From a virus: a DNA stretch of 64,000 nt. The notes beneath the pieces were generated by a model that worked only from the letters and a program-made list of their open reading frames with translations, did not search any database and had not been told where the DNA came from. This document shows, in pieces, positions 1-64,000 of this stretch. Positions within the stretch are counted from its first letter, which is position 1. Each line of letters opens with the position of its first letter. The stretch is taken from positions 13,727 through 77,726 of the IMG/VR virus record IMGVR_UViG_3300006919_000043; one strand, given 5' to 3'. Both the position numbers and the translations under genes were made by a program.

Positions 1-2
1 AT

Positions 3-191
3 GAAGATTTCAATGGTGAAAAACTGGCGTGGAATGAACAGAAAGGCTGGACTGTCCAAGAGGTTCTTGATGCACAGGCCGAAGCCTATAATCAATTGAG
101 TGCTGGTAATGAAACCTTAGACAGATCTGACTTCTCCGATGCGGAATGGGCTGAATGGATTGAAGAGATTTTACAGGAGGAATCGGCATGA
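3..191 (+). CDS. Hypothetical protein, 5'-truncated (acidic C-terminus)
   Basis: Frame 3 is open from the window edge (EDFNGEKLAW...EESA*); its stop overlaps the ATG at 188 (ATGA coupling). Confidence 0.65.
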   Translation, partial: EDFNGEKLAWNEQKGWTVQEVLDAQAEAYNQLSAGNETLDRSDFSDAEWAEWIEEILQEESA

Positions 192-577
192 GTGATTCAC
201 CACAAGACACCAACATTTACTATGCCCGTATCAAGAAACTTCAAGAGTCTATTGACGAATTAGAACATGAACATCAGCGCATGATTAAATGGATGGAGGG
301 CATTGATGAAAGGCTCGGTGCGGTTGAAACAACCACCCATGATGAACAAATAGAGCGTAAATTAAACACGGCTGTTTGTGATAAGGTGGGAAAGACCATT
401 GAAGATGCCATAGATGATGCACTTTCTTTTATTGATGTCGGTTCTCTTATGGTTGAAACCGCCAAAGCGGTCGAGGAATTGCATGAGAAATTGACGGAAA
501 AATATCCCAATATGTATTTCGGCCAAGATCAGTTAGTCCGAAGGATGAATAAATGGAGGCGAGATAGTGTCCGATAA
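188..577 (+). CDS. Hypothetical coiled-coil protein
   Basis: 129-aa ORF coupled to its neighbours; heptad-like N-terminus. Confidence 0.7.
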   Translation: MSDSPQDTNIYYARIKKLQESIDELEHEHQRMIKWMEGIDERLGAVETTTHDEQIERKLNTAVCDKVGKTIEDAIDDALSFIDVGSLMVETAKAVEELHEKLTEKYPNMYFGQDQLVRRMNKWRRDSVR

Positions 578-881
578 TCGTTACAATCAATCCTTGCATG
601 GTAAGATTGAAACATCTTTCAGTGCTGGTGAAGAAGTCCATGTCTTGACACAAGATGCCCATGATAGCCGCATAATGAACATTAGAGTCTATCGTGTTGC
701 GCCAAACAGGACAGGTCATGTCGGTTACACAAAGAAGGGATTTTATCTTACAGAAGATGAAGCACTGGAATTGCGTGACATGCTCAATAAGTTACTAAGC
801 GAGGAAAACATGTCCGAATTGTTTGATAAGACGGACAAAAAAATGAAGCCAGTATCTAACAAATTGGAGGCTAAAGAATGA
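567..881 (+). CDS. PC4/YdbC-like ssDNA-binding protein
   Basis: RIMNIRVY...YTKKGFYLTEDEALELRDML matches the PC4 pattern (xDIRxW...KG+xLT.EE...L). Confidence 0.7.
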   Translation: MSDNRYNQSLHGKIETSFSAGEEVHVLTQDAHDSRIMNIRVYRVAPNRTGHVGYTKKGFYLTEDEALELRDMLNKLLSEENMSELFDKTDKKMKPVSNKLEAKE

Positions 882-1354: not shown

Positions 1355-1400
1355 AGAATGGTTAGATCTGGTGTTTCGGCTCATAACATGGGATTGGTGA
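1347..1400 (+). CDS. Putative 17-aa Trp-rich micropeptide (MIREWLDLVFRLITWDW)
   Basis: GGGTGA RBS just upstream; fills the gap between two coupled genes. Confidence 0.4.
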   Translation: MIREWLDLVFRLITWDW

Positions 1401-10734: not shown

Positions 10735-11682
10735 ATGATAACATATAGAGAACCCCGACCATATCCCGTGCCCGACCATGACGATTTATTCTCATGTTAC
10801 AACTGGCACCCCGATATGCCGGACAATGTTATTCTCCGTGCGAGTAAATCATCGGTGGGTGACTTTACCTTCTGTAAGCAACAATACGCAATCAGCAGGG
10901 TTCTCGGCATGAAAGAGCCACAGAATGAGAACATGCTACGAGGAACAAATGTCCACGATAGTGTCGAATTGTTTTACCAGCGTGTTGATGTTGACAAGGC
11001 AAGTGAAGAACACGACCTTGAAAGATACTTTCGTGATTGTATTCCACATTCCAGTGAGATACGCTCGGCTCAAGATAATTTCTTCTTAGAAGAGGACTTA
11101 CACATTGACAGATTCTTAGAGAAAGAGATTCAGCGTTTTAACGCAAGCGACCCACAACACTTCTTACCAACTGGCAACGAATTGGTAATTAACCATGTTC
11201 ATGAAATAGAAGTGGATGGTATATCACAAAGGGTGCATTTCACCGGTATCATAGATAGGATATTTACCAACCCCGATGGGTCATTACACATACACGAATT
11301 GAAAACTGGTGCATGGAAAGATAGCGCAAGTAAATTTAGAAACATGAGAAAGGAAATGGCTTTCTATGTATGGTTGCTAAGAAAGTCCGACCCAACCAAT
11401 GCAATCACACACTGGGGTTGGGATCACACTAAAGGTGTCAAGAATACCGACACCTTTGACGCTGAAATGTTCCGTTATGTTGAGGCTGTCCGTGCAAAAG
11501 AGATAGGCGAAATGCTGGGCGACATACAGAATCTAATCCGCACGCACAGGAAATACAAAGGTGATGATGATATTAGCATGTTCCCCTTGTTACCATCGGG
11601 TGCCCAATATATGATATGCGATCCGTGGTGTGGCTTGAAAGAATTTTGCCCACGCTACCACCAACACATAGGAGATGAGTAA
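10735..11682 (+). CDS. Cas4/AddB-like PD-(D/E)xK exonuclease with probable Fe-S cluster
   Basis: SKSSV...FC, GTNVH, GIIDRI, HELKTG and C-terminal CDPWCGLKEFCP (1+3 Cys). Confidence 0.85.
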   Translation: MITYREPRPYPVPDHDDLFSCYNWHPDMPDNVILRASKSSVGDFTFCKQQYAISRVLGMKEPQNENMLRGTNVHDSVELFYQRVDVDKASEEHDLERYFRDCIPHSSEIRSAQDNFFLEEDLHIDRFLEKEIQRFNASDPQHFLPTGNELVINHVHEIEVDGISQRVHFTGIIDRIFTNPDGSLHIHELKTGAWKDSASKFRNMRKEMAFYVWLLRKSDPTNAITHWGWDHTKGVKNTDTFDAEMFRYVEAVRAKEIGEMLGDIQNLIRTHRKYKGDDDISMFPLLPSGAQYMICDPWCGLKEFCPRYHQHIGDE

Positions 11683-12895
11683 TATGACACGAAACACGGA
11701 CAAGGACTTCGGACATGGCAAGCATATTGACATTATGGTTGGCGATTGTGTTGAAAGCATGAAATCACTACCGGATAAGAGTGTGCAAACTTGTATCACC
11801 AGCCCACCATACTGGGGGTTGCGTGATTACGGTCATGAAAAACAGTTAGGTATGGAAAAGACACCCGAAGAATTTGTGGCTAATATGGTCGAAGTGTTCC
11901 GTGAAGTGAGGCGTGTCTTGCGTGATGATGGCACGCTATGGCTCAATCTTGGAGATAGTTATGCCAGTGGTAAAGCAAGATATTCCACGAAAGAGCAATC
12001 ATTTCTTGGTGGTAAAAGAAATGACGCTAAGTTAGGGGCACTGCAAGACGGTAAGCGTGCTTGTGTTAAACATCACGATTACTTGAAGGATAAAGATCTT
12101 GTTGGCATACCGTGGCTTGTGGCGTTTGCATTACAGCGTGATGGCTGGTGGCTAAGACAAGATATAATTTGGCATAAGCCAAACCCAATGCCCGAATCGG
12201 TAAAGGATAGATGCACTAAATCTCACGAATACATTTTCTTGTTGACCAAATCGCCAACATACTACTATGATGATGAAGCGGTCAAAATTCCAGTCAATGA
12301 CCCAAGCCGAAAAAACTACCAAAGTGGTGCGAGGACTAACGGTTTCAATTTAGATAGGAATGATAATGACATGGCCGAGCGCATGAAAGGCGTAATCTTC
12401 GACAAAAAGAAAAAGCGTTCTGTATGGTCGGTAAAAGTAAAACCATTCAAGGAGGCGCACTTTGCCACTTATCCCCCCGAATTGATTGAGCCGTGTATAT
12501 TGGCATCAACATCGGAACACGGGTGTTGCGCTGAATGCGGTGCCCCTTATGTTAGAGAAATAAAAACCACTTACCCTAAGATGAGAGGTATAGAAGCAAG
12601 AGATGTGCCGGGTCAAAACAAGCATGGCTCATTTGGTGCCACAAGGTTTGACGACCCAATAGTAACCGAAACTACGGGTTGGAAACCATCGTGCGATTGT
12701 AATGCTGAAATATCAAGATGCACCGTATTAGATCCGTTTGGTGGTTCGGGAACCACTGGGGCGGTTGCGCTAAAGCATGGGAGAAAAGCAATACTGTGTG
12801 AGTTAAACGAAGAATATGCAAAGATAATACCAAAGAGGATAGAATCTATCACTGGTTTGTCGGCAACACAAAAGACATTCGATGATTGGTGGTGA
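11675..12895 (+). CDS. Beta-class N4-C/N6-A DNA methyltransferase
   Basis: TSPPY, HFATYP, LDPFGGSGTT; Cys-rich insert (CCAECG...CDC); C-terminal PIP-like QKTFDDWW. Confidence 0.93.
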   Translation: MSNMTRNTDKDFGHGKHIDIMVGDCVESMKSLPDKSVQTCITSPPYWGLRDYGHEKQLGMEKTPEEFVANMVEVFREVRRVLRDDGTLWLNLGDSYASGKARYSTKEQSFLGGKRNDAKLGALQDGKRACVKHHDYLKDKDLVGIPWLVAFALQRDGWWLRQDIIWHKPNPMPESVKDRCTKSHEYIFLLTKSPTYYYDDEAVKIPVNDPSRKNYQSGARTNGFNLDRNDNDMAERMKGVIFDKKKKRSVWSVKVKPFKEAHFATYPPELIEPCILASTSEHGCCAECGAPYVREIKTTYPKMRGIEARDVPGQNKHGSFGATRFDDPIVTETTGWKPSCDCNAEISRCTVLDPFGGSGTTGAVALKHGRKAILCELNEEYAKIIPKRIESITGLSATQKTFDDWW

Positions 12896-15475: not shown

Positions 15476-17014
15476 ATGGGAATATCAGTTAATAGTGACA
15501 TGAATGATATAATGGCGCAACAAAGACAGTGGGATGATTACCAAGTCGTAGCAAGTGAAAACGAAGGTTCAAGGTTTATTCGTGGATATATTGAGCGTTT
15601 CAATACTGTATCGTTTTTCAACGAATACGCTGGCCTGTTGTCCTTCTTTTTCGTCATGGGTCAATTGTGTGCCCCATACATGAGAATACCCATACACGGC
15701 ACTTTCATTGATTGCAGGGTGCATATTTATTGGATTCAACAATCAAGGACTGGTAAATCAATTGCATGGGAATTTACGGACAGGTTGTTAGATGCTTGCG
15801 GTATTGAGAGCGATACTTTCACCGCAGGTTCGGATGCTAAACTCATAGGAACAGTCCAGCAAACACCCGTTGTTGATGAGAATGGTCGCCCAACGGGTGA
15901 AGTCAATCACATCACTGTGCCGGGTTTGCTGAACGGCTACAAGACACTACTGTTCGATGAGGCTTCTATATTGTTAAATGACTCAAAAGCGCACTTTTCC
16001 GATAAGATCCTTTACCTTCAACAAGCGATGGCACCTTTAGGTTCACGAACCAATGTATTGGTTAAGCACCTTGTTGGTGGCGATGTGAGAACACCATCGG
16101 GTGTTTCACTGTGGATGACAACATTCCCGCCAAAAGACATCATGGCACATGTGCTGGACAAAGGTTTCTTTCAGCGTGTATTCTTATTCCAAAACGACAT
16201 ATCCAGTGAACAGCGACAAACCACCAGCGAACACCGTGTGGGTGGTGCTTATGTCCGTGTGCGTGAGGAAATCATGGACTACGGCAATTTGGCTGAATAT
16301 CTTACAGCGTGTGTCAATGATGTAAGAGAACGCCTGTTTGATGCTATGGGTCTTTCGTGGCAAACTGTGGAGATTAGAAACGAAGAAGGCGAGTTAGAAG
16401 AACGCCGTATAAGCCGTGAAGATGTGTGGGCACAGATGGAAGATGGTGAGCGTGAGCAAGCCGCTATGAGGCACGCACACGACATATTCACCGTATCATC
16501 GGGCTACCACCCAGCGATACTCAACGCTGTTGACGATTACTATGGCTTGGTCAACAACATAGCCAGTGAGAATGTCCGTGAAACAGCACTGTCATTCTTG
16601 CCTAACATAGAAAACTATACTATGATTTTCTCCAACTTGATTGCGGTTCTCATGCGTTCACCACAAATAACTGAAGATCATGTGATGATGGCGAGCGAGA
16701 TAATCTTCGATAACTTACACAATCTAACTATTTGGCTTGAACAAAAAGAATCGGCTAAGGATAGAAAGAAGGTTAGTGCCGAGCGTGCGTCATGGATGGC
16801 CGCATTCCGCCAGTGTCAAAAGTATGTCAATGAGGCTGATGGTATCGAGAGAGTCATGCAATCCGATCTTCTCAAGGTGTATGCGGCACAACAATCGGTT
16901 GCCGATATAACAGCACAGCGAAGATACAACGCACTGCGTAAAGGTGGGCAGGTTGAGGTTGTCAAGCAAGGAAAAGGCGGTCGCAATTATGTATCTTTCA
17001 AGTGGGGGAATTGA
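15476..17014 (+). CDS. MCM-like AAA+ replicative helicase
   Basis: Walker A QQSRTGKS, GSDAKLIG, PGLL, Walker B LLFDEAS, FFQR Arg finger, C-terminal wHTH-like region. Confidence 0.7.
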   Translation: MGISVNSDMNDIMAQQRQWDDYQVVASENEGSRFIRGYIERFNTVSFFNEYAGLLSFFFVMGQLCAPYMRIPIHGTFIDCRVHIYWIQQSRTGKSIAWEFTDRLLDACGIESDTFTAGSDAKLIGTVQQTPVVDENGRPTGEVNHITVPGLLNGYKTLLFDEASILLNDSKAHFSDKILYLQQAMAPLGSRTNVLVKHLVGGDVRTPSGVSLWMTTFPPKDIMAHVLDKGFFQRVFLFQNDISSEQRQTTSEHRVGGAYVRVREEIMDYGNLAEYLTACVNDVRERLFDAMGLSWQTVEIRNEEGELEERRISREDVWAQMEDGEREQAAMRHAHDIFTVSSGYHPAILNAVDDYYGLVNNIASENVRETALSFLPNIENYTMIFSNLIAVLMRSPQITEDHVMMASEIIFDNLHNLTIWLEQKESAKDRKKVSAERASWMAAFRQCQKYVNEADGIERVMQSDLLKVYAAQQSVADITAQRRYNALRKGGQVEVVKQGKGGRNYVSFKWGN

Positions 17015-17563: not shown

Positions 17564-17788
17564 ATGCCTTACCAATGGTGGGAATGTGGCACCAAGAAGT
17601 GCGACAAGAAAAAAAAATGGTCAATTGCTAAAAGGCCGGGATGCCGAAACTGTGGTCGAAAAAAGAATATGGAGATAATGGAACCTCAACCTCCACCACC
17701 GAAAGACTTTTTCAAGCAAGACCGTATAGAGGCCGCAGATCGTGTGTTAAAGGGCTGGATTGATACCTTCAAGGGTCGCTCAAAATAG
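17564..17788 (+). CDS. Small Zn-ribbon protein
   Basis: ECGTKKC...CRNCG; last gene of the + arm. Confidence 0.6.
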   Translation: MPYQWWECGTKKCDKKKKWSIAKRPGCRNCGRKKNMEIMEPQPPPPKDFFKQDRIEAADRVLKGWIDTFKGRSK

Positions 17789-19135
17789 ACGCTGTTGTAG
17801 TGTAGTCGGCATTTGTAGTCCTTTCAACCCGAACATCTCCACCTGTGGGAATTTGTTTGATTTTGGCTTACGAAGCCACGGATATAAAGTGTAGCCACTG
17901 TCTAACGCATCTTTGATATATTCCTCTAATGGTTGGTTCTTATCCTTAGCATACATGTAGTTAGACAGTATAGATGGTCCGGAATGTTCCCTGCCTAAGC
18001 GCAAAATACCACGCTGGAAATCATCGTATGTTCTCCCCAACTGCTGTAAGCCCGTAGCACCATAATCCATATCACGGGATATGTAAGGCGGATCTAGATA
18101 CAACAGGTCGGTGGGTCGTAACAAATCACCGATGTCTAACGCATTACCCTGTGTAATATCCACGCCTTTGTAGCGTGGTGCGTAAGCATCGAGATTTATT
18201 TTACGACTCATAAAAGGAAAAGCACGGAAGTCCTTTGCTTTCTTTTTCTCCGCTTCACTGAACCCATCCCACGAACCCTGTGCGTGGTATCTGTTGAATT
18301 GTTCCATAGTGGCTTGACTGTTATCTCGGAATTTTTGGTTGGGGTATCGGCCTTCTGTATATGGCACACGATAATCGCCTTCAAAATTCTTCATGGGCAC
18401 TTCTTTGCCTTTCTCGTTCATTTCGGTGCGACCCTGCCAATCTGTGCCTCTCCAATCGGTGCGGAAACTTGCTAAGTTATTTCCTACAAACAAGCGAGCC
18501 ATTCTCAACATTTCCTCATCGGTCATGTCCTCTCCATGCACATCACGCCTCATTCTCAAATGGTTCAATTCGGCAAAGTTATCATCTAACTCCTGTTGAT
18601 TTTGAGGAATTACTACATCACCCATGCCTCTCTTGGCCTGTCTATGTATGTTCACTATATCGGGATTCATGTCATTAATCAGCCCAGTGCCACGATTCAT
18701 ACCTAACACGAATGAACCACTACCACCCATAGCCTCAACGGGTCTATCCCATTCACCTAACTTTGATGCCATTACACGAAACTTAGGCATCTCACTGGTC
18801 TTACCCCCCTCCCAATTGATGAAACTTGTGAGCATATTGTTTTCCGAATCAGTAAATCCTCTCATAGCATCAAAGATAGGTTGAGGGTCTTGTCCGGCCA
18901 GCACTGCGTTACGCATAGCCATGAGGGGCGTTCCCTCACGCCTACCAATAGAACCCTCTCTTTGCGCCTTTGTGGGCTTGAAAGGCGGGGCTGGTAGTGC
19001 TTGCCCTTCTTCTGTGAGTAAGCGCAAGGATTCGACAATCATAGGGTCTAATTCGTCTATGTCCTCATACTCAACTCCGTTGAATACAATACCTTTCATG
19101 ATCGACCACGCTTCGGAGAACGCATCACGATTCAT
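17780..19135 (-). CDS. Dam-like (D12 class, alpha) DNA adenine methyltransferase with N-terminal extension
   Basis: FINWEGGKT, EAMGGSGSF, INDMNPDIVN, YLDPPY, ILSNY. Confidence 0.88.
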   Translation of the reverse strand: MNRDAFSEAWSIMKGIVFNGVEYEDIDELDPMIVESLRLLTEEGQALPAPPFKPTKAQREGSIGRREGTPLMAMRNAVLAGQDPQPIFDAMRGFTDSENNMLTSFINWEGGKTSEMPKFRVMASKLGEWDRPVEAMGGSGSFVLGMNRGTGLINDMNPDIVNIHRQAKRGMGDVVIPQNQQELDDNFAELNHLRMRRDVHGEDMTDEEMLRMARLFVGNNLASFRTDWRGTDWQGRTEMNEKGKEVPMKNFEGDYRVPYTEGRYPNQKFRDNSQATMEQFNRYHAQGSWDGFSEAEKKKAKDFRAFPFMSRKINLDAYAPRYKGVDITQGNALDIGDLLRPTDLLYLDPPYISRDMDYGATGLQQLGRTYDDFQRGILRLGREHSGPSILSNYMYAKDKNQPLEEYIKDALDSGYTLYPWLRKPKSNKFPQVEMFGLKGLQMPTTLQQRLF

Positions 19136-19146
19136 AAACCAACGCC

Positions 19147-19308
19147 TCACTTTTTCGTATGCCTAAGACCCGACCAGCATATCTCTTGTAATTCGGCATC
19201 ATCTTCAAAGATAGTGAAATTCAATTCATCGGTGTTAATTGTATCATAAGCAATCCAAGTCACAATAAAGCCAACTATCATTCCACCTACAAACAAATAT
19301 CCTATCAT
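19147..19308 (-). CDS. 53-aa single-pass membrane protein (not in the ORF track)
   Basis: MIGYLFVGGMIVGFIVTWIAY followed by an acidic tail; ATGA overlap with the upstream gene. Confidence 0.6.
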   Translation of the reverse strand: MIGYLFVGGMIVGFIVTWIAYDTINTDELNFTIFEDDAELQEICWSGLRHTKK

Positions 19309-42572: not shown

Positions 42573-44852
42573 TCAAATGATGTAATACGGGTTATGCTCT
42601 TGAACCTTTAGATGTCGGACAGCAAACTCCACGCTTGCAGTTACCGGTCCTTTATCGTCGGGCATTGGATGTTCCGCTTTCATCAAAGTATAATCTTCAA
42701 GTGTAATTGTGCCTCTTTGTCTTGTGCCAGCCGAGCCGGGTTTGTTCAAAACCAGTGTGCAATCGTTTGTATTTATGTTGTGCTTACGGGTTCTTAATTC
42801 CTCAAAGAACCTATCATCTTCAACCAGTGCGGTGAATGTGAATGTGTATTCTCTTGCCGCCTCCGTGATTTCCGAAGCATACTGTGTAGCGGCTTCTTGC
42901 ACCTGATCTGCATCAGCATACGCACCATCTGTGCCTCTAATGTAAAACTGTGCGGTGTTACCATTAGCAATACTGATGTTGACATCTTTTGCTCGCAATA
43001 CGGTAGCACCAAAGGCACTGAATAACATGTGCTGGAATAGGTATGGCTTTTCGCCATTGACAGCGATACCGGACACACTACGCTTGGTTATGTCATTTGC
43101 AGTGTTCTCAAACATACGGTGCGGTGTAATGAATTGGTTGTTGGTGTCTTTGAACATGCGTGTTGCTTCAAAGTTAGTGGTCATTTTTAACTCACCTTCA
43201 CTGTCAGCAGTTAGACTCAAATCACTCACTTTACAACCGGAGAACACCCGTAGCATTTGGTTTGTGCCCGGTGTTGTATCGGTGGTGCGGAATGATTGCT
43301 CAAAGCAAAAGGTCGGTAGTGTAGTGTAACCAAAGAAATTATGCTCAACACCATTCTTTAATTCGCCAGTGGACAATAGTGCTGGTGAGCCACGCTCATG
43401 CGCTACTGTGCCGTCAAGAGTATATTGTAGTCTTTCCACACCACATGATGCGGCTACATGGTCGAATAAGAATGGTTCTTCGACATAGATGTAGCCATGA
43501 TCTTGACCGTTAGCACTACCCTTTCCGATAACCCTACGGATTTCATGTTTGTTTAATGTGGGTGCTGTAACATCAGCACCCGGCACTTGAACAGTATCTT
43601 TGTCGAAGATTTGAATGTAATCACCAAGAGTAAATTTGTCGGCATTGGTTGTTGAAAGTTTGATGCGTATATCGCCAGCAGTTACAGCAAGGGTTGGTTG
43701 AGCCAGTAAGTAAAGTGGCACACCGACAGTCTGTGCCCTTAGTTTAGCATCTGTATCAATGTCAGCCAAGCCATCTATTTGTGCGTTAGCCAGTGATGTA
43801 TATGAGCCAAGTAAAGGCGCACCTGCGGCACTTAGCACCTTGAACAGCCCTGCGGCTGGTGCATCTTCAAAGATTGAAGCAAAGCCAGTGATGTTTCCAC
43901 CAGCAGTGCTGATTTGTGCATCGGTAGCACCTGCCGCCGCAACGGTCAATCCACCTATCAATACATCTTTGCCAACATGTCCAGCAGTGTCAAGACCTGC
44001 TACACCTGTTCCAGCATTGTCAATAGCCGTTATAGTGGTGTCAAGAACCGGTGTGTCAAATGTGTTTTGTGCGGCGTATGTCATGTCGGTGACATTTGTT
44101 TTGAGATTTAATGGGGTTGCTGTTATAGTTTCCGAAGCATCACAGTGAGCAAACTCACCTACGCTCTTTGCAGTGTGCCCACCCAAAGCATATTTCCACA
44201 TCTTCAATGAATGTGCATTCAAGTCCATAGAACCACCAGCAAGAGTTTCCTTGCCCGATGTTAGAACATTCACATCACGCCCCATGCCGATGATGTGTTG
44301 CTTTCTAACATCTATCTCCGGTTCGGGTAGTGTGAATGAGTTAAGCAATCCTAAGAATTGGTCGGTTTTGACTCTTTCATCGCCACCACTTGCTACTGCA
44401 CCTGCTGTGCAATTGTGGTCGTATGTTGGAACACGCAGTGAATCAATAATGAAGAAATCGCCTGTGTTTGCAGTGGCCGGATTGGTTGCCAATCTCGGTG
44501 TGACGGTTATGGTAGCATCATCGTTTGCAGTGATGTAGTATGTTCGCTTTGTTGTTGGAAAGTGATCGGCAGTGAAAGCGTTGCTACCGCCCGATGAATA
44601 GATACGCAGTGTAGCACCAATCAACATACCATTGGGCACCATCATGTGCCCATCGGTGTCAACCCAATACATGGCTTCACCGATAGTAATTATACTACTG
44701 TTCTCGGTGTTGCCGTTGGCTGTTGACCAGCCCGATGTGGCACTACCTCCGCCCGCTACATTGGTTCCTTGTCCTACTAATCCGGTTTCTTTGCCCATAG
44801 ATATTTCAATTAAATCTCCCTTGAATACTTGATTTACTGGCATATTTATCAT
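42573..44852 (-). CDS. Major tail tube protein with large inserted domains
   Basis: FLGLLNSFTLPEPE...GGSMDL; LPTFCFEQ...FSGCKVSDLSLTA...VNISIANG...REYTFTF. Confidence 0.75.
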   Translation of the reverse strand: MINMPVNQVFKGDLIEISMGKETGLVGQGTNVAGGGSATSGWSTANGNTENSSIITIGEAMYWVDTDGHMMVPNGMLIGATLRIYSSGGSNAFTADHFPTTKRTYYITANDDATITVTPRLATNPATANTGDFFIIDSLRVPTYDHNCTAGAVASGGDERVKTDQFLGLLNSFTLPEPEIDVRKQHIIGMGRDVNVLTSGKETLAGGSMDLNAHSLKMWKYALGGHTAKSVGEFAHCDASETITATPLNLKTNVTDMTYAAQNTFDTPVLDTTITAIDNAGTGVAGLDTAGHVGKDVLIGGLTVAAAGATDAQISTAGGNITGFASIFEDAPAAGLFKVLSAAGAPLLGSYTSLANAQIDGLADIDTDAKLRAQTVGVPLYLLAQPTLAVTAGDIRIKLSTTNADKFTLGDYIQIFDKDTVQVPGADVTAPTLNKHEIRRVIGKGSANGQDHGYIYVEEPFLFDHVAASCGVERLQYTLDGTVAHERGSPALLSTGELKNGVEHNFFGYTTLPTFCFEQSFRTTDTTPGTNQMLRVFSGCKVSDLSLTADSEGELKMTTNFEATRMFKDTNNQFITPHRMFENTANDITKRSVSGIAVNGEKPYLFQHMLFSAFGATVLRAKDVNISIANGNTAQFYIRGTDGAYADADQVQEAATQYASEITEAAREYTFTFTALVEDDRFFEELRTRKHNINTNDCTLVLNKPGSAGTRQRGTITLEDYTLMKAEHPMPDDKGPVTASVEFAVRHLKVQEHNPYYII

Positions 44853-47552: not shown

Positions 47553-47939
47553 TCAGCGACCGCCAGTAATAATGATTTCAGCCGTTGCACCGTCTAAATC
47601 ACTGCTGTTGTTGGCTAATTGAATCAAAGCAAGTCCACCTGCCGCCGCCGCAGTGGGCTTGTCAACAGCGTTACCACTGGCTTCTGTGCTACTGGCAAAC
47701 GCCATTATTTTCTTATTTGCATAATCGTATCTTAGTAAGAGTCCACCAATTCCTTTGTTTGGTATGGTTTTTACAATAATATCAACGCTATCGGGCGTTC
47801 CGACATACGCTGTTGCGTCAAATTCTTCTCCGCCTGTTGGATAAGAATTGTCAAATGTTACATTAACAAAAGAGGTAATTCTAGATCCTACTACATTGTT
47901 TCTTTTCGACTGTGTGATAGTTAGTGCCATGTTGCTCAA
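47553..47939 (-). CDS. Putative capsid decoration/minor virion protein
   Basis: FDNSYPTGGE...YDYANKKIMAF; downstream of the MCP. Confidence 0.55.
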   Translation of the reverse strand: MSNMALTITQSKRNNVVGSRITSFVNVTFDNSYPTGGEEFDATAYVGTPDSVDIIVKTIPNKGIGGLLLRYDYANKKIMAFASSTEASGNAVDKPTAAAAGGLALIQLANNSSDLDGATAEIIITGGR

Positions 47940-52014: not shown

Positions 52015-55000
52015 TTAACCGCTTTGGGGAGGCGGTGGTAGTGGAGGCATCATTTCATCTTGCACTGAATCATCCATCGGCACTTCAACCTCTTCTTCAT
52101 CTTTCATTTCCTGTTTAGTCTTTGAAGGTAAGCGGATAACGGCTCGGTTGCCTTCAACCTCTAATTCGCCTTCAACATCTTCGCCCCTGCCGTCTTTGGT
52201 TTTGATACGCACATGTTGTGCCCCGCCTGTTGGTATTGTATCTTCGGGTTGGTATGGGTCATAGAAAGGCGTGGCTTCTTCGTCAACCAATTCGGTCGGT
52301 CCTCTTGGGTTGGTGTGCATATCCATCATGCCCGACCAGCCACCGCCAGTAATACTACCTGTTATTCTTGCTAATGGTGAACCTTGCCCTTTCTCGGTAA
52401 CATCATCGTCAATTGCTTCATTGACAGTCCACTTACCATTCTCATCACGCTCAAGTCCGTATTCTGTGCCAAACTGCTCAACATCTTTTTCGGTTAAACC
52501 GTCAACAGCACCAGTCAATTGGTCAATAGACATAGACTCGTCTTTCTCGGCAATAAGCCTCCTTGCCATCACTAACTTTTCTTCAACCGGTTTAGGATCT
52601 CCATCAGCATCTAACAAAGATGCCTTGTATATTGTTGAGCCAACCGTGTTTAGTTTTGGCGGGTATGGTGTCAATTGTTTCATATCATACTTCAACAAAT
52701 GCACACCGATAGCACCCCATACTGGTATTTGTCTTTCAGCGTGCTGTGCCAAAGGACTGGCTGGTTCTATGGTTTCAATGTCAAAACCTTCACCATCCCA
52801 TTCACCCTTTACTACCAGTGGTGCAGGGTGTCCACTATACTCTAACACAATGTTGTCATTACGGATAGAAACGGTTGGGAATGGTGCATACATCTTTTTC
52901 ATGTCACCGTTTGGCGCATAACATATCCACTTATGGTGAGTTTCTTTACCCTTCATGAATGTTGAAGTGGCATCACGCAACCACAAATCCCCGCCCAAAG
53001 CGTCTATGTTTGAGCGCAAACCACCAGCATCACTGAATTTACAGTCGGCTGGCATAGGGAATGAAATGCCTTCATCGGTTTCATACAAAGTGCGTAGTAT
53101 GGAGAGTCTATCCTCTAATTTTTCCATGTGTATATCATCGCCCTTATGCACTAACAAGTCAATCGCACGGTAGTGTCCATCTCTTAGAACACCGTCAAAT
53201 ACACAATCACCTTCTTGCTTTCTAACTCCTTCTTTTACTTTCAAAGGTAGTGAAATGTCTTTGCCTTTACCATTTGTCGCTTTTACATGACCGCCTTTCT
53301 TTACAACAAATACCCTTTTGCCTTCGGGTTTCTTTTGCACCACCCAATCGCCAGTGAATCCTTTAAGATCTGCAATAGATGAGAAATCATATATTGTGTG
53401 TGCTGGTATTATTGTTCGCTCAAATACCCCAGTGGCTTTGTAATCATCGGATTTGAATAAATCACCACTTATGATAGAGTTTGCACCCATCATGTCCGTA
53501 GCCTCAAGTGCTGGTATGCTGTTGACTTTTTCTTTGATTTGATAGTCTTGGTATGTTGGGTGAACCATTCCTACATGCCCTTCATGTGCGGTTCTTTGTA
53601 ATGTTTCAAACGGTTTGTCCTTCACATCAAAGCGTATTGCATTGTTTTTCCTATCCCAATTAAAAGCCAATGTTGCTGGCATTTTATGACCCCAAGCGTC
53701 TTTATCTCCTGTTAGATATATTGGCGGCATTGTAGCCATTGATGTTGGCGATACCGGACCAATTGGCACATCACGCTGTGCTAATCCTAAGCCCATCACC
53801 ATAGGCGCAAATGTTGTCATTTTATCATCACCACCAGCCCTCATCAATTGCATGTTGGCCGCTTTAGCCAATTGTTGAATGTTCGCTCTTGCTATTGTAT
53901 TACCTAAGACATCGTTAGGATTTTTACCGAATAACAACTCCGGACCATGTTCTTTGCTCAATTGTGCCGCCATTTGTTGCATCATTCGGCCTAAATGTGC
54001 ATCGGTCTTTTCATAGTGGTCATTGTGATATGTATGAAATTCCTCATCACCGGGATGTCGCTCTCTTGTCGGTCCGATTCTTGGTTGCCCTGCATCTGTA
54101 TGTGATGCAATAATTCTCCCTAACCCATTAGGGTCGGTAGCAAAAGCGTAAGAAGGAATAATCATGCGCTTACCAGTGCCTACAATTTCACTTGGGTGAT
54201 AATGTGCCCCGTTTGATATTGTTGACCACAAAGCCCTTCGTCTATTGAAACCACGCACATAAGGGTGTTCCGAACCTGCCGCCCACCCTGTCGAGATGGC
54301 TGAACGGTGGGGATGCCCCTTCATCATTTCATGGTTTGCTGTTTGAGGAAAGAATGACGAACCACTGCTATGCCAAGCATCTTCACTATCATTTAGTGGG
54401 TGGTTGCGGTCGGCTAACCAACCAAACAATTCATCACCAACCCAACTCTTGAATGCGGCAGGGTATGAATCTCGCATCATCGTTTGAAGTGATTGAGCAT
54501 CACGACCAACGCCTCCCCAATATTGGAAAGGTTGCCACCAATGATGAGTCATGGATGGCTCAATGGTTGTATTATCGCCCATAACAAACGGGCTTTTCAA
54601 ATGAGTTAGACCCGAAGCCATATCTTCGGCTGATACAGGACCGTGTCGATCTGATGGGCGTTCCCACCAACGGGCTATCGGTAAGAAACGCTCAAACCAA
54701 TTACGCTTTGCTCTATCCCAAGATATACCCGATGTTGCTTTGAAATCGTTTATTATTTTCCTTGCCTGTGCATCGTTTGGGCTTTCGGTTTGTCCTAACT
54801 TTTTGAGCGTGTTCATAAATTGTTCACGCTCATCAACGCCTTGCCATTCTAAACCAAACAAGTATGATAACATACCGAGCCTACCCTGTTTGCCAGCCCA
54901 CTGCTCTTTCTTTTGGTCAAGATATTCTTCATCTTCAAGATATGAGAACCTATTGTTTCTATCAGCCATATACAAGTCATGTAATGACTCCGTTGGCCTA

Positions 55001-55518
55001 CCTACAATATCAGCATACTCTTTGGGTATTTTGCCCAACCTTTGAGCCTCTTTCATTGATTTGATGATTGATTGGCCTTCTTCATCTTCCTCAATCAAAT
55101 GTAAAAGATGGTCAACAAATGATGGCTCACCATGTTCAGCCCCATGTAGTAAAGGCATTGTCGGCAATTCGTATGATAGTGGATGCCGTTTGCCAAACCG
55201 GTTATCTTCATTTGCTACCGGCCAATCCTGTGCGTATGTGCGTGAGAACCTTCTTTGACCGGATATATAGTCCTCATACCCCTGCGGTAAATTGAGCGTG
55301 GTCATTGGTGATGGCTTGTCCATGTCAAGCATTGAATACTGTGGTGGTGCTGTCATTGGTAGCATACCAAGTATTGCCTGATCTTCTTTCTCTATTTGTG
55401 TGCTATCGCCATAGTAATCGTCTAACGCTTTGAGATAGATGTCGTGGTCTATGTCTTGATTTTGAACAATAGACAAAAATGTGTCTGTTCTAATCCTTAC
55501 AAATTCTTCACGGTTCAT
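52015..55518 (-). CDS. Large head-module protein containing an ATP-dependent ligase adenylation domain
   Basis: WVVQKKPEGKR...VFDGVL...YRAIDLL...LEDRLSIL...LWLRD...KW at 52918-53360. Confidence 0.7.
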   Translation of the reverse strand: MNREEFVRIRTDTFLSIVQNQDIDHDIYLKALDDYYGDSTQIEKEDQAILGMLPMTAPPQYSMLDMDKPSPMTTLNLPQGYEDYISGQRRFSRTYAQDWPVANEDNRFGKRHPLSYELPTMPLLHGAEHGEPSFVDHLLHLIEEDEEGQSIIKSMKEAQRLGKIPKEYADIVGRPTESLHDLYMADRNNRFSYLEDEEYLDQKKEQWAGKQGRLGMLSYLFGLEWQGVDEREQFMNTLKKLGQTESPNDAQARKIINDFKATSGISWDRAKRNWFERFLPIARWWERPSDRHGPVSAEDMASGLTHLKSPFVMGDNTTIEPSMTHHWWQPFQYWGGVGRDAQSLQTMMRDSYPAAFKSWVGDELFGWLADRNHPLNDSEDAWHSSGSSFFPQTANHEMMKGHPHRSAISTGWAAGSEHPYVRGFNRRRALWSTISNGAHYHPSEIVGTGKRMIIPSYAFATDPNGLGRIIASHTDAGQPRIGPTRERHPGDEEFHTYHNDHYEKTDAHLGRMMQQMAAQLSKEHGPELLFGKNPNDVLGNTIARANIQQLAKAANMQLMRAGGDDKMTTFAPMVMGLGLAQRDVPIGPVSPTSMATMPPIYLTGDKDAWGHKMPATLAFNWDRKNNAIRFDVKDKPFETLQRTAHEGHVGMVHPTYQDYQIKEKVNSIPALEATDMMGANSIISGDLFKSDDYKATGVFERTIIPAHTIYDFSSIADLKGFTGDWVVQKKPEGKRVFVVKKGGHVKATNGKGKDISLPLKVKEGVRKQEGDCVFDGVLRDGHYRAIDLLVHKGDDIHMEKLEDRLSILRTLYETDEGISFPMPADCKFSDAGGLRSNIDALGGDLWLRDATSTFMKGKETHHKWICYAPNGDMKKMYAPFPTVSIRNDNIVLEYSGHPAPLVVKGEWDGEGFDIETIEPASPLAQHAERQIPVWGAIGVHLLKYDMKQLTPYPPKLNTVGSTIYKASLLDADGDPKPVEEKLVMARRLIAEKDESMSIDQLTGAVDGLTEKDVEQFGTEYGLERDENGKWTVNEAIDDDVTEKGQGSPLARITGSITGGGWSGMMDMHTNPRGPTELVDEEATPFYDPYQPEDTIPTGGAQHVRIKTKDGRGEDVEGELEVEGNRAVIRLPSKTKQEMKDEEEVEVPMDDSVQDEMMPPLPPPPQSG

Positions 55519-59737: not shown

Positions 59738-61049
59738 TTACAATATCCCTCCGCCATTGTTCAATAGTTTCTTGCGAAGCATTCCAAGACTTCATCAATT
59801 CAACCTGTAAGTCTTGATTAGAATTGTCGAAAGCCAACACACGCCCTGCGTTTTCGTCACCTTCTAAAGCGGAAACGACAATAGCCGCATCGGCCTTTTT
59901 GATAGTCAAATATGGCATGGCTTCTTTTGCGGCTTTGAATATAGCACCTTCACCTTCTAACACGAATTGCCGACCCTCCCATGTAATACGCTCGACACCA
60001 AGTTTGCTTTTCAATACATTGGCATAATCTTCCCCACGCTTTGTGTCAAACGGCAGGGTCAATCGTGGTGTGCCATTTTTCAGTAATTCCAAATTACCGC
60101 CAACCTCCCATAGATTACCTATGAAAGAGTCAACATGTTTGAGAAAAATAGGTGGTTTTGTTGTTCCATATTGTAATGTCCGGTTATCTTTTGTTGTGCC
60201 TTTACCCACTACCACTGTGTCGTATAACCAACCGTATGTCTTAATCAAACCGGCTAATTCCGAAGGTGTTGCGTCAATTCCATAAGATGTTAAATTGGAG
60301 GCATTCATATCTTCGTTCTTTCTCAACACTTCATGGCTCTTTTCCAACAGGTTTCTCTCCCTACGACTCAAACGCATTTCAGCATTTAGCCTGTCGTGCC
60401 ATTCTTTCCAAATACCATCAACATCTTTATCACTGGCCTTCTTTACCTTAGCAACTGTCTTTCGCAATTGATATTCTAACCTGTTCGGATGATTCAATAT
60501 TACATTGAAGTCATTGTCGTGCAACTGTAACAAATCCCAATCATCATCTTGCCACCAATCAAATTGTTTGAGGACAGCCCTTTGCTCTTGGCGTAACAAC
60601 TCAATTACGCTTGGAACCACATGACTTTCTCCCGCTTTATGTAACATGTCTATGAGATCTGAACCACTAATACCAAACTCATCTCGGAAAAATGATTTGC
60701 TAACCGGAACCTTTGGTGGTGCGGTAGCCATTGTGCCGGGTTGTTCGTTTGGATTAGCGACTTGCTCTCCGCCTTTGAAGCCAGTTATTTCAGCACCGCT
60801 TGTTGCTTCGGGTGGTTGTTCCTTTGTGTTTTCTTCAACAACCTCTTGCTGTTCCTTACTGGCTTCTTTTTGTTTCTCGGCTTCTTCAAGTTTAGATTCG
60901 GCTTGTTGTAATTCTTGCTCTTTCTTTTTCTTATCGTCAAGCAAATTGCCGCCAAACAAACCACCGACTGTGCTAACCTCCGGTGGTAAAATTTTGATAA
61001 TCGCATCTTCAAAAGACCGCACTTCGGGGTTCCACAATATGCGTGTCAT
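59727..61049 (-). CDS. Multidomain protein with C-terminal wHTH-like and degenerate LAGLIDADG domains
   Basis: FIGNLWEVGGNL...PRLTL...LKSKLG...MPYLTIKK..A. Confidence 0.55.
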   Translation of the reverse strand: MTRILWNPEVRSFEDAIIKILPPEVSTVGGLFGGNLLDDKKKKEQELQQAESKLEEAEKQKEASKEQQEVVEENTKEQPPEATSGAEITGFKGGEQVANPNEQPGTMATAPPKVPVSKSFFRDEFGISGSDLIDMLHKAGESHVVPSVIELLRQEQRAVLKQFDWWQDDDWDLLQLHDNDFNVILNHPNRLEYQLRKTVAKVKKASDKDVDGIWKEWHDRLNAEMRLSRRERNLLEKSHEVLRKNEDMNASNLTSYGIDATPSELAGLIKTYGWLYDTVVVGKGTTKDNRTLQYGTTKPPIFLKHVDSFIGNLWEVGGNLELLKNGTPRLTLPFDTKRGEDYANVLKSKLGVERITWEGRQFVLEGEGAIFKAAKEAMPYLTIKKADAAIVVSALEGDENAGRVLAFDNSNQDLQVELMKSWNASQETIEQWRRDIVNEC

Positions 61050-62482
61050 ATATCAGCCCACCCTATCCTCTTAGTCCATGTAGCACTGTCAAGTATTACA
61101 ATGTTATCACGGTATTCTTTTGTGGCTTGCACAGCCAATGCTAACGCAATAACTGTATCGTCATGCGCCCCCAATGACTCCATTTTGCCATTAGGCAACA
61201 TGGTGAACATTGACAATTCATTGAGCAAAGTATCTATCATTCTCCGTGTTCTCCCTTCTTCCTTGTATGGCAACAACAGGTGTCGCTGTTCAAAATGCAA
61301 TTGAAGGCTGTGTATAATTGCTTCCTTCCTCATACGGCTCATAGTGAACGGTTTGATAGGTAAATCAGTAATCTCCTTCAATACTTGATGGAACGCCTGT
61401 GCGAAATTGTTGGTTTCCAATTCGACAACAACTGGGTTGAATCTTGCATTCAACTCTATGATTTTATCAATCTGTGAATTGAAGTCCATTCCTTTTTCGT
61501 GGTGCATCCATACTATACGCTTATGCCTATTCTCATCCATAGCGATAACACACATACAGGTATAGTCAGCCTTTCTATCGGGGCTAATTGCAGGATCCCA
61601 ACCAATGTAATAATTGACATTCTCATCAAAGTCGCCCGCATACGGGTCAAAAACAAATGCGTAATCTTCATCTTTACACGGCTCGGTCATTTCAATTGGG
61701 AATAAACTTGACTCGCTGGCTATCGGCTTACATAAATATTCACGGGTAAATGCTATTGATGTCATTTCTCCCCTTCTTTGTTGCAGTGCATCAAGCGACC
61801 AGCGTTCCGGCCAAAGTGGCTTACCTGTTTCTTCATTAATAGCAGGGTATTCTCTAACTTGATACCCTTTGAGTCCTTTCAACTCTTGATACAGGTCAGT
61901 GTATGAAAATGGTGTTCCGACGATACACAACTGTGCTGTGTGGTGAAGCACTGGCAATAGAGCAGTATAGAACCAAGAAGCAACATGTGTCAACTGTGTT
62001 GCCGCTTCGCTGGACAATATATCGTCAAGCACTACGATGTCGGGGTGGGCACCACGAACCGCTTTACCAACGGACATAGCCGATATAGATGATTTATTTG
62101 TGAATTTGAATTTTTGCTTCGCCCACCCACGCTTAGGTTTCAAGTGCTGTAATGCTGGCACTGTTTCAATCAACTCATTCATTTTAGCCATGTGTTCAAT
62201 TGACTGGTGTTGGCTGTGTGAGAAAAATAGGACTTCTGTGCCGGGATTGTAAGCCATTTTCCAAAGTAAATATACCCTGTAAAAAACGGACTTACCGTGG
62301 TCACGGGATGCAATCACACAAGTCTTGTTATGGTTCTCGGACATGTCGAACCATTCTTGATGAAAGTCAGCAACCATGTAGTTTTCGTGTTTTCCGCAAA
62401 TGTCCTCAAAGAAATACTTGAAATCCCTGCGACCCATCTCCCAGTCAACATTCTTCGCTAACTCATGGATGCCATTACTCAT
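61046..62482 (-). CDS. terL: Terminase large subunit
   Basis: ASRDHGKS, RGAHPDIVVLDD, VGTP, nuclease GWDPA...D, HDDTVIALALA. Confidence 0.95.
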   Translation of the reverse strand: MSNGIHELAKNVDWEMGRRDFKYFFEDICGKHENYMVADFHQEWFDMSENHNKTCVIASRDHGKSVFYRVYLLWKMAYNPGTEVLFFSHSQHQSIEHMAKMNELIETVPALQHLKPKRGWAKQKFKFTNKSSISAMSVGKAVRGAHPDIVVLDDILSSEAATQLTHVASWFYTALLPVLHHTAQLCIVGTPFSYTDLYQELKGLKGYQVREYPAINEETGKPLWPERWSLDALQQRRGEMTSIAFTREYLCKPIASESSLFPIEMTEPCKDEDYAFVFDPYAGDFDENVNYYIGWDPAISPDRKADYTCMCVIAMDENRHKRIVWMHHEKGMDFNSQIDKIIELNARFNPVVVELETNNFAQAFHQVLKEITDLPIKPFTMSRMRKEAIIHSLQLHFEQRHLLLPYKEEGRTRRMIDTLLNELSMFTMLPNGKMESLGAHDDTVIALALAVQATKEYRDNIVILDSATWTKRIGWADI

Positions 62483-62488
62483 TTAGCA

Positions 62489-64000
62489 TCAACCCGTTAT
62501 TTCATCTATTTCATCGTCACTAAATCCGTGATGATCGACTAAATCTCCTTTATCATTCTTCAAACGACTAATGGCTGATGCGTTTCCATTCCTTGCCGCT
62601 TCAACCACTTCATTGACATAATCTTTATCGCTTGAACCGGAGATGTATTTTGTGTAGTTTTTTTCCTCCGGCTCACTTACCGCTTCTTTTTTTTTAGCCT
62701 TAGCCTCTTGGCGTTTTTCGCTTCGGGCTTTCGCCGCCGCTTCATTACCCTCATTGACCTTTGCCTTCTTTTCATTCTTAGGGCGTTGCCTTGCCTTTTG
62801 TGTTGGCTTATTTGGGAATGGTTTTACGCCTTGACCTTTTGTTTCTTTTCCTTTAGTGGTGTTCTCAACAAGTTTCTTTGCCGATGCCTTCTTTGGCTTG
62901 GCTGGCTCTTGCATAACTTGGGCACCTTCTATGTTCTCTTTTACTGGCTTCTTACCTCTTTGGGCTTTGGTGCCAGTCTTTTTCTTAGGCGGTGCTTCTT
63001 CTCGCATTTCTTGGGTGCCTTCAATTGCGGCTTGCTTGTTTGCTTCGGCAACTTCTTTACCCTTTTTTGTATTGCTCACAGCCTTTGCGGCTGGACCTTT
63101 CTTAGCCTTCTTAGGTGCGGCCTTCTTAGGCGGTTTCGGTTCATCCTCCGGTGTTCCCTCGTAACTGTATTTTTCTCTTATCTTATTCCTACGATTTTTT
63201 TGCTTCAAACGACCATCTTCGTATCTTGCTTCGGGGTGTTGATCGGTTATTTGTTGTTCGGTTCTTTCATTGGCGGTAGTGAATGTCCTTTTCCTTCTTC
63301 CACTATCGGCCATAGGTTGGGGTTCACGGGATTCCACCTTTTCCGGTAGCAATCTTTCATCCCGTGTTTCAATGTTTCCCATTGGTAATGCCCTTCTTGG
63401 TATTGGCGAACCTCTTTTTGTGGTTGCCACTTCGTCAGCCGAAGGCTTGTCAGTCATAGGTTCTGTTTCCTCCATTTCCTGTGGAGGCTCAACCCTTTGG
63501 CCTCGGCTATCAATACCAAATTCTCTTAACTCGTTATCTAAATCTCGCTTTGGCTGTGCAAATTCTGTGATTTTCATTTGGTTAAGCCCTGCCTCCGTTG
63601 GAGATGTCTGCTGTGGCTCAATTGGTTTCATATCGTTATTGATTCTATCATATATGCTTTGCATTGATGATGGGGTTGTTGGGGCGGCTCGCCCTCCCAT
63701 TTCTTCACGCATTTCGGCCAATCGGCTTGATGGACTGTCGGGGTCAACATCTCTATACTTGTTAGCAATTGATGGCGGTGTTGATGTAATTTGCTGTTGC
63801 TCTTGCCTTCGCTGTAATTCTTCGGGGTCATTTTGCATAAGCCACTGTTCATCCGGTTCTTTGCCCCATGTTCTCCGGTAAGATTCAGCCGCACCTAATG
63901 GTTCTTTTTTCGGCTTTCTTTCTTCCATCGTTGGTGGTGAACCACTGGCACTTTCCACTGTTCCTTGAGTCGTTTCCTGTTCAGCAGGTTGTCGTCTAAA
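62489..64000 (-). CDS. Low-complexity Lys/Glu/Pro-rich protein, 5'-truncated
   Basis: Frame is open to the window edge; histone H1-like KKA-rich C-terminal half; contains QMKITEF. Confidence 0.7.
   Translation of the reverse strand, partial: FRRQPAEQETTQGTVESASGSPPTMEERKPKKEPLGAAESYRRTWGKEPDEQWLMQNDPEELQRRQEQQQITSTPPSIANKYRDVDPDSPSSRLAEMREEMGGRAAPTTPSSMQSIYDRINNDMKPIEPQQTSPTEAGLNQMKITEFAQPKRDLDNELREFGIDSRGQRVEPPQEMEETEPMTDKPSADEVATTKRGSPIPRRALPMGNIETRDERLLPEKVESREPQPMADSGRRKRTFTTANERTEQQITDQHPEARYEDGRLKQKNRRNKIREKYSYEGTPEDEPKPPKKAAPKKAKKGPAAKAVSNTKKGKEVAEANKQAAIEGTQEMREEAPPKKKTGTKAQRGKKPVKENIEGAQVMQEPAKPKKASAKKLVENTTKGKETKGQGVKPFPNKPTQKARQRPKNEKKAKVNEGNEAAAKARSEKRQEAKAKKKEAVSEPEEKNYTKYISGSSDKDYVNEVVEAARNGNASAISRLKNDKGDLVDHHGFSDDEIDEITG

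Follow-up and report, generated by a model that had tools for sequence, protein, structure and literature searches.

YCWGR and CTAG survive only where they overlap GATC in a magrovirus genome purged of some fifty short words

Restriction-site avoidance and the blocking of restriction enzymes by Dam methylation at overlapping GATC sequences are both textbook principles. In phage and archaeal virus genomes avoidance appears as a depletion, by synonymous recoding, of short palindromic and Type IIS-like words, in sets that are lineage-specific. Dam overlap blocks, for example, TaqI, Hpy188I, BspHI, XbaI and ClaI, and in the known cases the methyl group lies inside the recognition site. Here we describe a virus genome in which the two principles appear to meet. 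The stretch that was analysed (the window) comprises 64,000 bases with 44% G+C, and is bases 13727-77726 of the 77,726-base IMG/VR record IMGVR_UViG_3300006919_000043; the words of chief concern are YCWGR (Y, pyrimidine; W, A or T; R, purine), CTAG and GATC. This genome shares the features of site avoidance listed above, and differs from the described examples in that about 50 words are at zero or near zero in a single genome, including five of the sixteen 4-bp palindromes, and in that each sampled genome of the presumed host carries only a few methylases. As in Dam overlap, cutting would be escaped only where a site shares bases with a GATC that we infer to be methylated, and just as TCNGATC puts an A:T pair of GATC inside the Hpy188I site, so does GATCWGR put one inside YCWGR. 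The differences are that the effect is read here from genome evolution and not from a digest, and that it covers overlaps of a single base (CTAG, CTGAAG and CYCGRG).

Eleven YCWGR sites occur in the window (starts at 126, 1367, 23234, 25667, 26465, 34731, 38054, 42902, 54650, 55377 and 60658), all of them places already listed in a preliminary description of the sequence, which had missed none. That description had also maintained that YCWG is followed by a pyrimidine in dozens of cases, that CCAGG, CCTGG, CCAGA and TCAGA are missing and that the remaining CTAG sites overlap GATC, and the counts agree with it throughout: the window holds 558 YCWGY, 413 RCWGR and 414 RCWGY, none of the four missing words, and three CTAG sites (18094, 24012 and 47881), each overlapping GATC. 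Over the whole genome there are 14 YCWGR sites, and all 14 overlap GATC. The comparison with Markov and codon-shuffled nulls that it had called for points the same way. In 200 permutations of synonymous codons within each of 67 open reading frames (ORFs), which preserve both the proteins and the codon usage, YCWGR is expected 423±15 times (minimum 382) and CTAG 122±9 times, against 14 and 3 observed, and 7.9% of the shuffled YCWGR sites (maximum 11%) overlap GATC; AGCT and GTAC, too, fall far below this null. Chance or base composition as the cause is ruled out by the two kinds of null together. Selection strongly removes YCWGR and CTAG from this genome, and overlap with GATC lifts that selection completely. 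The surviving sites, the wider purge and the two methylase genes of the window are as follows (coordinates of the window; words are given without strand).

124..130: GATCTGA, in which TCTGA (a YCWGR word) shares TC with GATC; from word count.
1365..1371: GATCTGG, shielded YCWGR; at the orthologous place in the relative G002 both GATC and the site are gone.
23232..23238: GATCTGG, shielded YCWGR; from word count.
25665..25671: GATCTGG, shielded YCWGR; GATCAGG stands at the orthologous place in G002.
26463..26469: GATCTGA, shielded YCWGR; from word count.
34731..34738: TCAGGATC, YCWGR overlapping GATC by one base; one of two such sites in 17 contigs, with neither GATC nor the site at this place in G002.
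38052..38058: GATCTGA, shielded YCWGR; from word count.
42902..42908: CCTGATC, shielded YCWGR in the mirror orientation; from word count.
54648..54654: GATCTGA, shielded YCWGR; from word count.
55377..55383: CCTGATC, shielded YCWGR; from word count.
60656..60662: GATCTGA, shielded YCWGR; from word count.
18091..18097: GATCTAG, where the overlap of CTAG and GATC is a single C; located in the Dam-like gene and conserved in G002.
24012..24018: CTAGATC, shielded CTAG; from word count.
47881..47887: CTAGATC, shielded CTAG; from word count.
16671..16679 (genome 30397): CTGAAGATC, one of the genome's two leftover CTGAAG/CTTCAG words, with a one-base GATC overlap; CTGAAG/CTTCAG is shielded in G002 and G003 too.
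36591..36599 (genome 50320): GATCGAACG, the genome's only CGAACG/CGTTCG, with a one-base GATC overlap; from word count.
17780..19150, minus strand: Dam-like (D12 class) adenine methylase of 456 aa with DPPY, candidate writer of a GATC mark; from PF02086, motifs, fold and distribution.
11675..12895, plus strand: beta-class N4/N6 methylase of 406 aa with SPPY, candidate GGWCC methylase and probably not the GATC enzyme; from PF01555, motifs and distribution.
1..64000: genome-wide loss of some 50 short words; GATC is evenly spaced, with 102 copies here and 129 in the whole genome; from Markov and shuffle nulls.

Relatives of this virus in IMG/VR share 59-93% of the amino acids of its family B DNA polymerase (PolB), and five larger records were compared, namely the genome under study (G000), G002 (93% PolB identity), G003 (73%, a record that is 61% complete), G004 (62%) and G001 (59%). 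All YCWGR sites overlap GATC in G002 (16/16) and G003 (29/29), as they do in the smaller contigs L002 (11/11), L008 (13/13) and L023 (10/10). When the 17 contigs that avoid YCWGR are pooled (426 kb, distinct sites counted), 93 of the 96 YCWGR sites and all nine CTAG sites overlap GATC; the many unshielded YCWGR sites that the preliminary description had named as evidence contrary to its own reading did not turn up. The three exceptions all lie in the last ~210-260 nt of the 7.5-kb contig L006 (L006:7271-7476), beside two sites of ACGT, a word otherwise absent from the clade, and that contig end is probably chimeric. The recurrence of the pattern in independent metagenome contigs rules out an assembly artefact, and since every ATCWGR is preceded by G and every surviving TCTAG by GA, neither a shield motif smaller than GATC nor an enzyme preference for certain flanking bases can account for it. 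The number of GATC-overlapping YCWGR per GATC (0.11 in G000, 0.11 in G002 and 0.17 in G003) is at the level of the two relatives whose avoidance does not extend to the full YCWGR set (0.16 in G001 and 0.10 in G004), which argues that overlap with GATC removes the selection completely. Turnover between sister genomes obeys the same dependence: among the orthologous places of shielded sites in G000 and G002, GATC alone is kept at seven, both GATC and site are lost at seven and the rest keep both, while a site without its GATC is kept in 0/7. Among the shielded sites of the 17 contigs, GATCTGR is more frequent than GATCAGR (66 vs 23). In G000 and G002 there is a general depletion of GATCA, a hint that some further word with GATCA in it has been purged.

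YCWGR is one of many erased words. Counting a word as purged where its maximal-order Markov expectation is at least 12 and its observed count at most 0.12 of that expectation, with reverse complements treated as one class, 49 classes are purged in G000. The 4-mers are AGCT (0), GTAC (0), ACGT (1), CGCG (1) and CTAG (3), with shuffle expectations of 251 for AGCT and 219 for GTAC. GCWGC, GTAGA, GAGAC, GGAGC, CTCAG, GGGAC, GGCCC, CGTCC and CAGAG are 5-mers at zero, and AGTTC/GAACT has three copies left; the 13 purged 5-mer classes include three of the four YCWGR classes, and the fourth, TCAGA/TCTGA, escaped the threshold because its Markov expectation is deflated. The purged 6-mers make up 31 classes, and whole degenerate families known from real enzymes (CCWWGG, GWGCWC, CYCGRG and GRGCYC) are missing. 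Each of the five larger records purges 40-60 classes, in sets that overlap only partly: 15 classes, including AGCT, GTAC, CCWGG and CTCAG, are purged in all five and others are lineage-specific. The avoided words thus resemble restriction specificities (palindromes and complete degenerate families) and their sets differ between G000/G002, G003, G004 and G001. The preliminary description had centred on YCWGR and CTAG; the avoidance it saw is real, and YCWGR is no special case among the ~50 purged words. The wider set carries the GATC dependence with it, since the commonest 4-mer overlapping the leftover purged words is GATC (20/30 in G000, 24/36 in G002 and 36/47 in G003), and the other shielded words include CTGAAG/CTTCAG (five copies over G000, G002 and G003), CYCGRG (two), CGAACG, CGTCC, CGACG, CACGAG and CGCG. 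As side observations, G004 purges GGATCC, AGATCC and AGATCT; G001 purges CASTG, TGACA, AGACT and CGWCG too; and the CCAGN words are purged piecemeal, CCAGA and CCAGC in G004 (L037-L040), CCAGT in G001 (L011-L015) and CCAGG everywhere.

The genome is that of a tailed archaeal virus of the magrovirus kind. By Pfam scan its left arm encodes PolB, an RFC-like AAA+ clamp loader, a Cas4/Dna2-like PD-(D/E)XK nuclease and an ERCC4-HhH (XPF/ERCC4) nuclease, and a UvrD-like helicase is encoded upstream of the window; the right arm carries long ORFs on the minus strand. Among cultured viruses, tailed viruses of haloarchaea have the most similar PolB, at ~24% identity, and no known phage was matched when 20 kb were searched with megablast. 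The gene content matches that described for the magroviruses, the presumed viruses of Marine Group II (MGII) archaea (PMC5434244). Searching a genome collection with a PolB profile for cellular host homologues found nothing.

The gene that most plausibly writes a mark on GATC lies within the window itself. The Dam-like protein matches PF02086 with 37.6 bits (cut-off 22), and the motifs LDPPYISRD and MGGSGSF, the latter including the glycine-rich S-adenosylmethionine loop GGSGS, are conserved in 19 homologues; its score against TIGR00571, 43 bits, is below the cut-off of 115. The nearest solved sequence is DpnM. A structure model built from the 19 homologues has a predicted local distance difference test score of 85.3, and its top ~20 matches in the PDB are all EcoDam, DpnM, T4 Dam or Mcbe1 (E 4e-9 to 1e-6; target-normalised template modelling scores 0.57-0.66). 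The viral protein has in common with E. coli Dam, T4 Dam and DpnM the PF02086 domain, the DPPY motif, the alpha-class motif order and the fold, and differs from them in being only 13-20% identical, in its length of 456 aa, in an N-terminal extension of ~100 aa and in a larger insert. Only 18 clusters, all on virus-sized contigs, make up the family, and no cellular members were found among them. Homologues are 94% identical in G002, 64% in the G003-type contigs L023, L024 and L026 and 32-38% in G004, and G001 has none; close homologues (at least 64% identity) are therefore found only in the shielding clade, and G001 and G004 show no general shielding, so that general shielding follows the close homologues. 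The suggested tie between genome composition and the viral Dam-like gene is in this way supported by comparison. The predicted fold matches only GATC-specific Dam enzymes. The enzyme is a candidate writer of the GATC mark, with its GATC specificity suggested indirectly by this match between gene and shielding.

We consider host restriction combined with viral Gm6ATC shielding (m6A, N6-methyladenine) to be the most likely mechanism, with a probability of roughly 0.6. Restriction enzymes across the host population would cut viral DNA and so select for the loss of about 50 words by synonymous recoding, a set that includes CCWGG and the wider YCWGR, CTAG, AGCT, GTAC, ACGT, CGCG and GCWGC. The virus would keep GATC and mark it, most likely as Gm6ATC, by means of its own Dam-fold methylase. 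At any purged word that overlaps GATC, this mark would come to lie in or beside the recognition site and block cutting. With cutting blocked at overlaps, the overlapping copies would be neutral and persist at their expected frequency, and all other copies would be lost. Only the virus is under this selection: no word is purged in two genomes of Poseidoniales (200 kb each of the CM001443 MG-II chromosome and of a Thalassarchaeaceae genome), where the YCWGR classes are near expectation, with CCWGG at 0.6-0.7 of expected.

Several observations weigh against this reading. In the words shielded through one base (CTAG, CTGAAG, CYCGRG, CGAACG and CGTCC), Gm6ATC falls immediately beyond the sequence that the enzyme recognises. 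A further difficulty is the purge of TGATCA, seen in G000 and G002 only (0 vs 10-11 expected), although BclI-type enzymes are blocked by Dam methylation. The gene and the shielding do not correspond one to one, as the six TCTGG left in G004 are all GATCTGG, and the Dam-like homologue of that genome is a distant one; methylation of GATC by the host could play a part. On the host side, the order Poseidoniales (Marine Group II) is presumed to be the host from the magrovirus literature, and the number of methylases per Poseidoniales genome is small. The search for a matching host enzyme that the preliminary description had envisaged came back empty: no cognate endonuclease was found, the EcoRII-C domain being present in only one of 301 Poseidoniales genomes, with profiles that cover restriction enzymes poorly and a host that is itself presumed.

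The strongest competing account concerns the number of enzymes behind YCWGR, and would retain the GATC shielding. In it YCWGR is the union of separately purged words (CCWGG, the asymmetric CCAGA/TCTGG, and TCAGR/YCTGA), each the target of an enzyme of its own. It can draw on G001 and G004, which hold 540 and 310 YCWGR respectively and, like every other relative, no CCWGG at all, and on the behaviour of G004, which beyond CCWGG purges CCAGA/TCTGG alone (the six leftovers just mentioned) and keeps 205 CCTGA/TCAGG and 99 TCWGA; a pattern of this kind means that YCWGR may be composite. Related words are purged elsewhere as well (CCAGC in G004 and CCAGT in G001), and with ~50 purged words some unions will mimic a degenerate palindrome. 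Against it, G000 purges five of the 16 NCWGN classes, namely GCWGC and precisely the four that make up YCWGR; we estimate that, of the 1820 ways to choose four classes, only ~6 would yield a palindrome of this kind. The further degenerate palindromes that G000 lacks are purged as complete families, all YCWGR classes are shielded alike, and only three states are seen among the clades, none of them with the TCWGA or the CCTGA part alone. YCSGR words (S, G or C) are at expectation, so the centre is W and the set is YCWGR, neither YCNGR nor TCNGA. A CCWGG-only target does not describe the data either, since TCWGA and CCWGA/TCWGG are purged equally completely in G000, G002 and G003: the purge resembles what the CCWGG systems (EcoRII, PspGI, Dcm and the persistent archaeal 5-methylcytosine methylase HG2, PMC10609329) would predict in that CCWGG is lost from every relative, and departs from it in that, in the shielding clade, the loss extends to these further words. 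The original idea of a host activity recognising YCWGR accordingly stands as far as strong removal goes and is less secure as to a single specificity. On balance we lean towards a true YCWGR activity, and regard the composite as a serious contender whose chances fall somewhat short of even. No restriction enzyme of that specificity came up when full texts were searched for the word YCWGR; an apparent YCWGR methylase motif in N. meningitidis is off-target activity of a CCWGG methylase (PMC8112702), and YCWGR also appears as a symmetric MspJI dyad (PMC10954476). A reading of the MspJI type (a symmetric mCNNR dyad) was set aside because a single half-site suffices for cutting by the MspJI family and RCWGR is abundant.

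A second question is which base of GATC is marked. We infer the adenine, with a confidence that is modestly better than even. In 89 of 91 cases YCWGR and GATC overlap by two bases, so that the site includes an A:T pair of GATC, which fits the m6A block that had been proposed; the part of that proposal that fits less well is CTAG and the several other words that are shielded through one base, with m6A outside the site. The CTAG overlaps number three per genome in three genomes, against 4.4, 4.9 and 5.5 expected (9 vs 14.8). One-base shielded overlaps are nearly absent outside the clade (2 vs 35.5 expected in G001, 2 vs 21.2 in G004), and GTAGATC is unshielded (0 vs 4.4 expected in G000 and 4.9 in G002), as is GATCCWGG, at 0 in all five genomes with an expectation of 3.3 that was computed for G001 alone. 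A mark on the C:G pair of GATC (GATm4C, with N4-methylcytosine, or another modification of cytosine or guanine) would suit the one-base cases, because all shielded words contain that pair and not always the A:T pairs (CTAG, CTGAAG, CYCGRG, CGAACG, CGTCC and CGCG), and m4CTAG and methylation of the internal C of CCWGG-type sites are typical cognate protections; the virus, moreover, carries an SPPY methylase of the N4-cytosine type. We nevertheless think such a mark unlikely. GATCCWGR, in which the modified C would stand for the Y, falls about tenfold short of expectation (two distinct sites in the 17 contigs, with ~20 expected, vs 89 two-base GATCWGR overlaps). CGATCG is purged in all five genomes though it contains GATC (0, 0, 1, 0 and 0 vs 6-13 expected). 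Enzymes of the PvuI type are indifferent to Dam methylation and are blocked by CGATm4CG, so the continued purge of CGATCG fits m6A better than methylation of C, which would have given cognate protection. Shielding is seen in G003 and the G003-type loci, where the SPPY gene was not found (these records being incomplete), and no hypermodification genes were found among the ORFs scanned against Pfam, those of the left arm and of the 13.7 kb that precede the window.

The SPPY methylase itself appears to have another target. It matches PF01555 with 168 bits and is of the beta class, with motif IV before motif I (TSPPYW at residues 42-47 and DPFGGSGTT at 353-361); in alignments its N-terminal part comes closest to 2zie, an SPPY protein, and to PvuII and N4-cytosine methylases, and its C-terminus, QKTFDDWW, resembles a PCNA-binding box. 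Homologues are present in G002 and G004 and were not found in G001, in the 61%-complete G003 or in G003-type loci; G001 has a 603-aa C5 methylase instead (G001:15253-16971). The presence of the gene tracks GGWCC and not GATC: the three genomes with the gene show no avoidance of GGWCC (observed/expected 35/78, 43/80 and 72/94), and the two in which no homologue was found have purged it (1/71 and 1/96). Marine viral genomes are reported to carry m4C at GGWCC (PMC8919816). On the basis of these five genomes the SPPY enzyme is a candidate m4C methylase of GGWCC, and it is probably not the GATC enzyme.

It is also conceivable, and in our judgement rather improbable, that the words were purged mainly to escape methylation by common archaeal orphan methylases, and hence Type IV restriction on passage between hosts. 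Persistent archaeal orphan methylases target CTAG, GATC, AGCT, GTAC, CGCG and CCWGG (PMC10609329), and all of these motifs except GATC are purged by the virus, as is ACGT, which is not listed there. Modification of GATC, CGCG and GTAC, and weak modification of AGCT, have been reported in marine Euryarchaeota and Poseidoniia (PMC8919816; PMC9516812), and the off-target motif of the meningococcal CCWGG methylase shows how methylation of this kind could come to look like YCWGR. Among Poseidoniales, PF02086 is present in 12 of 151 genomes, PF00145 in 31/151 and PF01555 in at least 89/151, and most of the PF01555 hits are one conserved orphan enzyme of ~320 aa with few other methylases beside it. 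The copy in G005 (L259:4362-5318; G005:C1:378362-379318) is an SPPY protein encoded among housekeeping genes, adjoining the gene for phosphoglycerate kinase, and the conserved enzyme may be the CGCG m4C enzyme reported for MGII. The account falls short in that most of the ~50 purged words are typical Type II/IIS cutting sites for which no orphan methylase is known, that the virus adds methyl marks of its own, and that GATC overlap could lift the pressure to escape methylation only if GATC methylation blocked the other methylase. A candidate for a restriction system is present in one genome of the presumed host order: a gene of the EcoRII-C family (282 aa, G049:C17:46427-48151) is convergent with a C5 methylase gene 240 bp away (L258; G049:C17:46403-49651), and the pair may be a restriction-modification system of the CCWGG/CCNGG type. 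The probe sequence Eury806 matches 115 contigs, nearly all of them from Poseidoniales.

GATC is in addition spaced with unusual regularity. The genome has 129 copies, about half of the 241±11 of the shuffles, and the coefficient of variation (CV) of their spacing is 0.53 in G000, 0.46 in G002, 0.59 in G003, 0.55 in G004 and 0.55 in G001 (0.34-0.59 across all relatives, including L002 and L008), compared with 0.99±0.09 for random placement. With a mean spacing of 599 bp, no gap exceeds 1560 bp, and no other 4-bp palindrome is so evenly spaced, except TCGA in G001. The two sampled Poseidoniales genomes also have about half the GATC expected, but there the evenness is weak (spacing CV 0.77-0.92), and the even spacing extends to relatives that have no viral Dam gene. 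Pure mutual repulsion was rejected as the cause: a hard-rod equilibrium predicts a CV of 0.69-0.86 and 2.7-12.7 gaps above the observed maximum, set against an observed CV of 0.46-0.59. As mutual exclusion predicts longer gaps than are seen, it appears that long gaps, too, are selected against. Such regularity in every relative suggests that something reads GATC, and a protein bound there could occlude the neighbouring bases and so account for the one-base overlaps with no direct role for methylation. We hold this to be very improbable because CGATCG and TGATCA, which lie wholly inside such a footprint, are still purged; G001 and G004 combine the same even spacing with almost no shielding, and no candidate binding protein was identified.

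Least probable of all is that host DNA is cut at YCWGR by a virus-encoded nuclease and that the virus steers clear of the target of this enzyme, for although YCWGR avoidance is clade-specific and coincides with the gene set of the clade, and a PD-(D/E)XK nuclease gene adjoins the SPPY gene, that nuclease is Cas4/Dna2-like (PF12705), YCWGR is one of ~50 avoidances in lineage-varying sets such as varied host enzymes would give, and we know of no precedent for a self-avoiding nuclease among archaeal viruses.

A further interpretation suggests itself, which we put forward only tentatively and which, taken as a whole, we would not bet on: that magrovirus genomes record the restriction repertoire of the whole MGII population, including an undescribed YCWGR specificity, and that GATC is a maintained, evenly spaced methyl mark with a function of its own, read by some further factor, the shielding being a by-product. 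The MGII archaea are abundant and uncultured, so that their defence systems are not directly assayable, and a virus with ~50 erased words in lineage-specific sets would serve as an indirect list of the specificities it has met. Each sampled host genome holds few methylases, so a purge this broad suggests that the defence repertoire is spread across the host population. The GATC-adjacent survivors amount to a natural test of methylation sensitivity, one that would show the viral GATC mark to be functional and indicate which host activities are blocked by it. In the literature searched we did not find the scale of the purge, the strict footprint of overlap shielding, a possible YCWGR specificity or the GATC lattice of magroviruses, and the magrovirus papers searched do not mention the purge.

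A minor feature of the window, apart from the words discussed above, is a run of about five tandem 24-nt repeats (TTCTTC..GG..CTTTC.GG) at 35747-35887, at the 5' end of a 1779-aa ORF on the minus strand.

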